Shown piece by piece: positions 31,411 through 31,583 of a DNA stretch of 43,841 nucleotides. A program made the position numbers and the translations under genes. The stretch covers positions 1 to 43,841 of the forward strand of contig JAUXDO010000001.1 in the NCBI GenBank assembly GCA_030618315.1, in the 5' to 3' direction. The stretch's first letter is position 1; every line of letters begins with the position of its first letter. Origin of the DNA: Candidatus Peregrinibacteria bacterium (lineage in GTDB: Bacteria > Patescibacteriota > Gracilibacteria > UM-FILTER-43-11). Below the pieces are notes generated by a model that saw only the letters and a program-made list of their open reading frames with translations, did not search any database and was not told where the DNA came from.

Positions 31411-31583
31411 ATTTCAGATTTCGGATTTCAGAATTCAGACCTGCCTGCCGGCAGGCAGGTTCGATTTTGCATTTGAGAAGTTGCATTTTGGATTTTTATT
31501 TGAGATTTTTTCATTTATAACAAAAAATGCAAAATACTAAATCTAGAATGGGATTCTGAAATCCGAAATCTGAAATCTGAAAT
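31411..31583. repeat. 'tgaaatc' family element, copy 2 (173 nt), with internal GC palindrome
   Basis: Arms atttcagatttcggatttcagaattcagac (31411-31440) and ggattctgaaatccgaaatctgaaatctgaaat (31551-31583). Perfect palindrome cctgcctgccggcaggcagg at 31440-31459. The internal block atttgagattttt(t)cattt...aaaatgcaa.a..ctagaat is shared with 36567-36704. Confidence 0.8.

Follow-up and report, generated by a model that had tools for sequence, protein, structure and literature searches.

Small palindromic repeats are common in bacteria, and their spread and persistence are mostly unexplained. The 43,841-nt stretch of Candidatus Peregrinibacteria DNA analysed here (GenBank assembly GCA_030618315.1, contig JAUXDO010000001.1, positions 1 to 43,841; hereafter the window) raises this question in compact form, for it carries three intergenic palindromes whose arms are built of the same 7-nt unit, tgaaatc in one reading direction. 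Are these terminators that arose independently, copies of a MITE-like (miniature inverted-repeat transposable element-like) mobile or recombining element, as the original prediction had it, or something else? Here, we show that they belong to one multi-copy, non-autonomous family rather than being three independent terminators; further copies occur genome-wide, and six related genomes have the family too. Comparison with these relatives shows that the family is kept uniform within a genome by concerted evolution while its sites persist. We favour, with somewhat better than even confidence, the reading that the copies are gene-less members of a hairpin family, resembling REPINs as well as the intervening sequences (IVSs) of rRNA, whose uniformity is maintained by copying or gene conversion.

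The window is contig C3 of the genome under study (G000), an assembly of 1.14 Mb in 126 contigs with 36% G+C that is 72.5% complete. Calls of open reading frames (ORFs) beyond the window are crude ones made for this analysis; within the window they agree with the ORFs listed for it. The three copies lie within 2–3 nt of where they had been placed from the letters alone:

219-312, no strand: copy 1, the short form (94 nt), with arms 219-250 and 281-312 (32 nt, 84% complementary) and AAATGTAACATG in the loop region.
31410-31584, no strand: copy 2, the finding originally reported (175 nt), with arms 31411-31439 and 31555-31583 (29 nt, 90% complementary).
Within 31410-31584: interior blocks of copy 2, on the left GATTCGATTTTGCATTTGAGA..., on the right ...AAATCTAGAATGGGATTC.
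36564-36706, no strand: copy 3 (143 nt), with arms 36565-36596 and 36674-36705 (32 nt, 88% complementary).

In all three, arms of 29–32 nt made of tandem GATTTCN units are paired with GAAATCN units at 84–90% complementarity. The shared form of the arms is borne out by a pattern search: GATTTCNGATTTCNGA, with at most one mismatch tolerated, matches the window 18 times, 16 of these inside the three copies, against 0.03 matches in dinucleotide shuffles (n=100), none of which reaches 18. Folded as RNA, the copies form AU-rich terminal stems of 24–28 bp, with z-scores of -3.3 to -9.8 relative to shuffles (copy 2, -63.9 kcal/mol and z -9.8; copy 3, z -6.3). A scan of the window against Rfam gives no match to the element; a single tRNA alone reaches the gathering score.

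The search for further copies across G000 yields 16 two-armed and ~6 partial ones, and these share more than their arms. Copy 2 and a copy on another contig, in the opposite orientation (C41:10127-10273), have a 49-nt exact stretch in their interiors and are ~90% identical overall, over 147 nt. Together with the z-scores of 5 to 11 obtained against a gene-bearing copy (see below), this exact match makes the shared internal block more than a product of AT-richness. Because unique interiors are shared across contigs, local slippage cannot explain the copies. A multi-copy alignment reveals arm-GATTCGAT-(N)CATTTGAGA... on one side and ...AAATCTAGAATGGGATTC-arm on the opposite one, an asymmetric plan that gives the copies an orientation. 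Conserved ends and a variable interior are thus found as described, and the sub-terminal sequence is conserved as well. Copy 1 shares just its loop, AAATGTAACATG, with a copy at C33:8936 and with one in a related genome (G009). The family also has company: G000 contains 109 tandem arrays of period 7, against at most 33 for any other period from 4 to 12, and these heptamer arrays comprise dozens of unit types, which makes the tgaaatc elements one family among many heptamer-armed palindromes.

The only longer copy found, at C9:4720-5270 (551 nt), has the same arms as the rest of the family and encloses an ORF of 123 amino acids (aa) that matches PF05635, the protein of 23S-rRNA intervening sequences, a four-helix bundle (E = 6e-15). 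Its relation to the gene-less copies extends inward from the arms. Over its initial 58 nt it has 88% identity to copy 3; the block that follows the ORF stop codon (AAGAATGTTAAATTTTGAATCTTAAATGGGATTC) aligns with the right interiors of copy 2 and of a copy on contig C77; and when copies 2 and 3, stripped of their arms, are aligned with the sub-terminal parts of the C9 copy, their interiors reach z = 5 to 11 relative to shuffles. The interior of copy 1 shows no alignment with it above chance (z -0.8 and 0.5). The full cassette is one of ~550 nt, a PF05635 gene between inverted GATTTCN arrays with ~30–60 nt of conserved sub-terminal sequence per side. Gene-less copies may be the cassette minus its ORF and leader or, equally, the cassette may be a hairpin that gained an ORF in its loop. 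Every one of the 11 PF05635 genes of G000 is bracketed by inverted tandem arrays that have a unit of their own; besides GATTTCN these include TAGCGNN, GGACTAA, GATTGAA, GTAAGTT/GTATGTT, 12-mers and longer repeats rich in GC. Of the 11 arm types, ten reappear, gene-less, at 4–32 other loci. Among the 320 period-7 arrays away from PF05635 genes, 53% have a consensus unit identical to an arm unit of one of these genes, compared with 16% in a reversed-arm control.

Orthologous sites in relatives bear on how the copies are maintained. All cross-genome site comparisons are at genus level or deeper, and G001 is a congener of G000. The window is syntenic with contig C6 of G001, with ~75% nucleotide identity within genes; where an intergenic palindrome stands, the alignments are interrupted. 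Among 18 genomes of the same family, the arm pattern is abundant in six (G013, 184 matches; G018, 91; G009, 40; G002, 38; G003, 35; G001, 17) and practically absent from the others searched, with 0–1 matches for a reversed control. A homologue of the C9 protein is present in all six pattern-rich genomes, and the 14 genomes that lack it have at most one pattern match; as related genomes are not independent samples, this co-occurrence is only suggestive. Nine copy sites of G000 were compared with their orthologues in the congener and in other Peribacteria genera. The hairpins found there share the boundaries of the G000 copy and carry the unit of the other genome, as at the site of copy 2, which abuts a SLOG-family gene:

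G001: a 75-nt GATTTG[AT] hairpin, its left and right boundaries base-identical to those in G000.
G009: a GA[TAC]CTC[AG] hairpin.
G013: a 200-nt element of G013's own ATTTCG type.
G002: a 65-nt GATTTCT hairpin.
G018: no hairpin.

Of the nine sites, six carry the GATTTGN type in G001 and two carry CATTTA[AT]; G009 has GATCTCN at three of four readable occupied sites (two-armed or one-armed), with two sites empty; and G013 has its own type at four of six. Empty orthologous sites are seen after the RNase III gene (rnc) in G002 and at the C41 and C55a sites in G009, and one-armed arrays at the C77 and C9 sites in G009 and after rnc in G018. For copies 1 and 3 the neighbouring gene differs in the congener, and their sites are hence uninformative. 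The change of unit is visible in whole-genome counts, for which up to one mismatch was allowed in GATTTCN and GATCTCN, and only exact matches were taken for GATTTGN, in G000 and G001:

GATTTCN: 81 in G000, 17 in G001, 40 in G009.
GATTTGN (exact): 11 in G000, 78 in G001.
GATCTCN: 0 in G000, 0 in G001, 167 in G009.

It is visible, too, in the arms of PF05635 genes related to that of C9:

G009:C166: 83% identity to the C9 protein; arms GA[TA]CTCA.
G001:C20: 57% identity; arms GATTTGT.
G013:C8 and C5: 65–68% identity; G013's ATTTCG type, with the sub-terminal motif GCATTGTCAT.
G001:C14: 66% identity; arms CATTTA[AT].
G008:C10: 66% identity; arms ATTTTG/ATTTGG.

The GCATTGTCAT motif also occurs in gene-less copies of G013, where many loci in addition show full-length (~150 nt) matches to the C77 copy of G000. 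The gene-bearing C9 copy itself is not syntenic across relatives: its site holds a short array and extra genes in G001, a different palindrome and a response-regulator gene in G013, and in G009 (C16:2980-3210) a one-armed run of ~16 GA[TA]CTCA units (~115 nt), with no inverted partner and no gene. When identity is computed over the terminal 45 + 45 nt of each copy, orthologous copies reach 0.48–0.70 and same-genome paralogues 0.61–0.83, with the orthologues lower in eight of eight pairs. Copies thus resemble those at other sites of their own genome more closely than they resemble the copy at the same site in another genome, and the word 'recombining' in the original prediction fits well. That sites and boundaries persist while the unit is specific to the genome, the gene-bearing copy included, amounts to concerted evolution, under which sequence must flow between copies.

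Some features of the PF05635 genes and their arrays may be recorded alongside. Most PF05635 genes in G000 are preceded by a conserved AT-rich leader (~AGAATTTTAGTATTTAA-TGAAT...ATG), found at C24:2830-2865, C33, C58, C59, C77:13890-13922 and C9:4800-4838, and on C36 and C20 upstream of genes resembling Y1_Tnp transposases; the leader before the Y1_Tnp-like gene on C36 is very similar to that of PF05635 genes. It may be a shared promoter or start signal of small 'selfish' genes. The PF05635 gene at C61:2228-2542 has a complete TAGCGNN palindrome, with both arms, upstream and one extra right arm downstream, a layout that looks as if a gene-less hairpin had recombined with a gene-bearing element. 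In some elements (the flanks of C119:7053-7352; G013:C11:19440-19680) the A-rich (CAAAT-type) arm precedes the T-rich one, a polarity reversed relative to the tgaaatc family and to most PF05635 cassettes in G000.

Where do the copies sit? In all 22, one end falls at -8 to +8 nt relative to a flanking ORF's stop codon; divergent gaps contain no copy. In tandem contexts (n=14) the element is always against the upstream stop codon, with 3–548 nt to the next start, and several copies fill convergent gaps exactly. The neighbours of the window copies illustrate this:

314-1420, minus strand: FtsA-like gene, its stop codon 1 nt from the end of copy 1.
31584-32177, minus strand: SLOG/LOG-like gene (PF18306, SLOG cluster 4), its stop codon touching the right end of copy 2; anchor of the orthologous-site comparison.
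36711-37328, minus strand: ion-channel gene (PF07885), its stop codon 4 nt off copy 3.

Copy 3 spans a whole convergent gap, between stop codons at 36564-36566 (plus strand) and 36711-36713 (minus strand); this fit, and the position of the right end of copy 2 at a stop codon, had been seen correctly beforehand. The ends of the elements read (T/A)ATTTC...GAAAT(A/T), and orientation relative to the upstream gene is variable (2 sense, 5 antisense). Within C101:24039-24863, one copy starts 3 nt past the stop codon of rnc itself (C101:24039-24719). When heptamer arrays of every type are taken together, only 73 of the 152 in tandem gaps come within 10 nt of a stop codon, with no overall bias towards it, so that the stop-codon rule is specific to the tgaaatc family. 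As a rule for every heptamer array of G000, 3′-end placement was rejected, given that 18% of divergent gaps have arrays. Rejected, too, was the idea of an intrinsic terminator: the stems are without a T-tract, and a consensus scan flags only a nested GC palindrome in copy 2, on the strand opposite the adjacent gene. Just left of copy 1, at 171-194, stands a terminator-like hairpin with a GC stem, CCCGTACAA...TTGTACGGG followed by ATTT; as an ordinary hairpin, it implies that G000 uses conventional terminators too.

The nested palindrome deserves separate treatment:

31440-31459, inside copy 2: GC palindrome CCTGCCTGCCGGCAGGCAGG (20 nt), a separate dispersed micro-repeat.

It had been described as a feature of copy 2, and its position stands; as a part of the element it does not, because CCTGCCTGCCGGCAGGCAGG and its close variants form a micro-repeat with 21 copies of its own in G000. 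These are 20–24 nt long, have the form CCTGCC[TG/TA]CCGGCAGGCAGG, and sit mostly within heptamer arrays of varied types, the 7-nt phase of which continues across the insert (other sites: C9:2178, C83:428, C105:3953, C121:4908, C101:4470, C75:2758). Between copy 2 and C41:10127-10273 the palindrome is a clean 20-nt extra with no duplication, in this one filled/empty pair, and in the copy C101:4435-4554 it occupies another place within the element. Absent from the one and displaced in the other, it is nested in the family rather than part of it, and it is a second, independently inserted micro-repeat. Elhai and colleagues are said to have reported, in 2008, a comparable nesting of small dispersed repeats (SDR) in the heptamer repeats of Nostoc punctiforme, which we offer as a lead and not as a tested comparison. 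Both would be ~20-nt hairpin micro-repeats inside heptamer arrays; the GC palindrome has the array in phase on both sides, and sequence and phylum reportedly differ. At C75 2620-2810, a 12-mer array (CCAATTGTGGCT x3), a GC palindrome and a CTCGAAA heptamer array follow one another in an apparently continuous open frame, so that repeat modules seem to be tolerated within coding sequence.

Palindromes of other families are present in the window at 4257-4385, 24443-24565, 26627-26750 and 28437-28720 (TAGCGNN heptamers, 12-mers and long GC-rich repeats). These four are absent from, or cut to 6–49 nt at, the orthologous spacers of G001.

How might the copies be renewed? Under the reading that we favour, sequence would pass from one element to another by gene conversion or by template switching between hairpins, or a source copy would be re-inserted at old sites; the data do not point to cut-and-paste transposition as the route. 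An RNase III gene is present in G000, and the enzyme would probably cut the stems in transcripts. A hairpin right after a stop codon would then be tolerated, or would be useful as a 3′-end or processing signal. These sites may well be under selection for a hairpin in addition; the concerted change goes beyond what site-by-site selection of terminators predicts.

Several points weigh against this account. RNase III cutting and host benefit are things that we only infer, and so are the way of copying and a role for the PF05635 protein, if any. Within the assembled 72.5% of the genome, no enzyme could be linked to the family. No movement or excision product was seen, nor any copy present in only part of a population. 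Near-identical strains, sought by exact-protein look-up, were not found, and the filled-versus-empty comparisons are between genera only, where gain and loss are indistinguishable. A 29-nt interior probe has no match among metagenome contigs, in which the family pattern finds no more than two distant copies, both one-armed. Arrays of other heptamer types do stand in divergent gaps, at the 18% mentioned above. In G001, the gene closest to that of C9 (66%) has CATTTA[AT] arms, and the dominant GATTTGN is found on the second closest (57%); G001:C14 and G008:C10 both depart from the rule by which the dominant type is found on the closest relative, and the mismatch in G001 means that PF05635 protein and arms do not track one to one.

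The explanation nearest to the original prediction is that of a classical MITE, which would derive from a transposon by deletion and be mobilised in trans by a transposase that might lie in the unassembled 28%. Much of the outward form agrees with it: terminal inverted repeats, lengths of 90–175 nt, a high copy number and a longer, gene-bearing relative, in a genome that is only 72.5% complete and does have two Y1_Tnp-like genes. The marks of mobility that had been proposed (target-site duplications, empty sites and a transposase-linked copy) were looked for. No direct repeat or target-site duplication is seen at the 16 copies, nor at alignable pairs of filled and empty or short orthologous sites. 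Empty sites do exist in G002, G009 and G018, between genera and without duplication; with most sites hairpin-occupied in other genera, new insertion is at most a possibility. The longer copy encodes only the 123-aa PF05635 protein and no transposase, and the two Y1_Tnp-like genes (C20 and C36, weak matches to PF01797) are not flanked by GATTTCN arrays; given the completeness of the assembly, absence of a transposase parent is not proven. These two ORFs (C20:1306-1524 and C36:72-227) each contain an in-frame GC-rich palindrome (e.g. TCTGAAAGCGGGATTAGCGAATCCCGCTTTCAGG). The sole PF00078 reverse-transcriptase match of the assembly lies at C66:9390-9797, in a 583-aa open frame; no tie to the repeats turned up, and no closer examination was made. 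Moreover, the arms of the tgaaatc family are tandem arrays of variable unit number, not fixed ends, and neither cut-and-paste nor copy-and-paste transposition into random targets predicts that orthologous sites should persist while their sequence changes. Non-autonomous and multi-copy therefore hold and recombining fits well, a MITE in the strict sense is not supported, and we regard that explanation as very improbable. At the other extreme, the copies might be plain STRR-like heptamer microsatellites, shaped by local slippage and within-locus template switching without common descent. Such an origin would agree with the excess of period-7 arrays (109 against at most 33), the dozens of unit types and the one-armed arrays, and over-representation of heptamers is known in bacteria and has been ascribed to slippage (PMC4692102). 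It is at odds with non-repeat interiors shared across contigs (the 49-nt exact match, ~90% identity over 147 nt, z up to 11), with ~150-nt full-length matches to the C77 copy at many loci of another genus (G013), and with a unit type that is genome-wide rather than locus-specific, and we consider it the least credible of the explanations weighed here.

A more serious competitor holds that these are 3′-end hairpins selected by the host, as two-way stops, mRNA stabilisers or RNase III sites, which owe their likeness to occasional gene conversion and slippage, the PF05635 gene being a passenger in the loop. The placement at stop codons (22/22, none in divergent gaps, several exact fits in convergent gaps) speaks for it. 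So does the occupation of sites across genera with identical boundaries, since neutral spacer at ~75% genic identity should have decayed; a variable orientation (2 sense, 5 antisense) is expected of a symmetric hairpin, and inverted heptamer arrays occur near ORF 3′ ends in Xanthomonas (PMC4692102). Yet no U-tract follows the stems, in a genome with ordinary GC-rich hairpin-plus-T terminators, and the empty or one-armed sites in other genera (G002 and G018 at rnc; G009 at C41, C55a and C77) make the hairpin dispensable. Nor does site-by-site selection predict a genome-wide switch of unit that includes the arms of PF05635 genes, or the conservation of sub-terminal sequence, outside the stem, with the gene-bearing C9 copy. 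We think host selection unlikely as the full account, while granting it appreciable weight. A bolder form of the favoured reading assigns the protein a part: each PF05635 protein would be the trans-acting partner of its own heptamer-hairpin family, recognising the arrays as DNA or RNA and promoting their copying or protection, so that gene and hairpins would form a REPIN/RAYT-like replicator without a transposase. The PF05635 four-helix bundle is a relative of Avd, the accessory protein of diversity-generating retroelements. We put this proposal forward as doubtful, though worth stating.

Among described systems, the closest is REPIN/RAYT in population structure and the gene-bearing rRNA IVS in anatomy. 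REPINs are REP doublets forming hairpins, associated with RAYT genes (Bertels & Rainey 2011, PMC3116915). Like the tgaaatc family, they are dispersed extragenic inverted doublets that fold as hairpins, with a spacer less conserved than the ends; as in G000, a genome has several types, and to each belongs one single-copy gene with the same repeats on its flanks; and repeat type and associated gene co-vary over the long term, with vertical descent within a lineage (PMC3116915). The differences are equally clear. The RAYT gene encodes a Y1 (HUH) tyrosine transposase, whereas the associated gene in G000 is PF05635, with the PF01797 matches elsewhere and unflanked; the REPIN repeat is a fixed palindrome of 20–40 nt with a GTAG or CGTC tag, whereas variable numbers of 7-nt tandem units are found here; and no excision intermediates are seen for the tgaaatc family. 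The IVS in helix 45 of Coxiella burnetii has a 28-bp stem, heptamers and a gene of the same family, and its excision by RNase III has been shown (Warrier et al. 2016, PMC4990558). Gene-bearing 23S rRNA IVSs (Coxiella, Leptospira) share with the C9 cassette a long terminal stem with heptamers in its region and, within the loop, an ORF of the PF05635/'S23p' kind, and ORF-less IVSs also exist (PMC4990558). In contrast to an IVS, which sits in an rRNA helix, all tgaaatc copies lie between protein-coding ORFs, after stop codons, and they form a many-copy, mostly gene-less population. Of the rRNA of G000 itself, only the 3′ end of 16S is assembled (C75), with no 23S sequence.

Inverted GGGAATC arrays in Xanthomonas and the STRR heptamers found in heterocystous cyanobacteria (Rehm et al. 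2015, PMC4692102) are likewise intergenic tandem heptamers, often in inverted pairs, that lie closer to the upstream ORF, at its 3′ end (an average of 28 nt there), and between the same genes of related species their length and sequence vary much (PMC4692102). Those repeats are G-rich and quadruplex-forming, with one unit type per genome, whereas the units of G000 are AT-rich and make up many families; no conserved non-repeat interior, gene-bearing copy or PF05635 link is described for them (PMC4692102). The over-representation of period 7 is as in the STRR class, whereas unique sequence shared between loci, not expected of that class, is present here. With MITEs, Correia/NEMIS, ERIC, BOX and RUP elements the family has in common its size, terminal inverted repeats, intergenic location, high copy number and a deletion-derivative relation; it differs from them in having no target duplication, transposase parent or fixed termini, and in that its sites stay occupied at orthologous positions while the sequence is replaced. 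What is new here is the gene-less hairpin population together with its concerted change.

Finally, the family is a tractable one, with ~20 gene-less hairpins tied to one gene-bearing copy in a ~1-Mb genome of the candidate phyla radiation, and it involves PF05635, the long-orphan protein family of rRNA intervening sequences. A one-base change of unit has swept both arms of dozens of copies per lineage while the sites stayed fixed across genera, which points to an active copying process not yet described. These observations suggest that PF05635 proteins may act on heptamer arrays and that the stems after stop codons may be RNase III sites which shape operon transcripts in bacteria with tiny genomes. 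If PF05635 proteins are indeed partners of hairpin families, a family left without a function ever since the discovery of rRNA intervening sequences would acquire one, and the over-representation of heptamers in many bacteria would be explained. If, instead, the hairpins are merely selected 3′-end signals homogenised by gene conversion, they would still be a clear case of concerted evolution among dispersed bacterial repeats.

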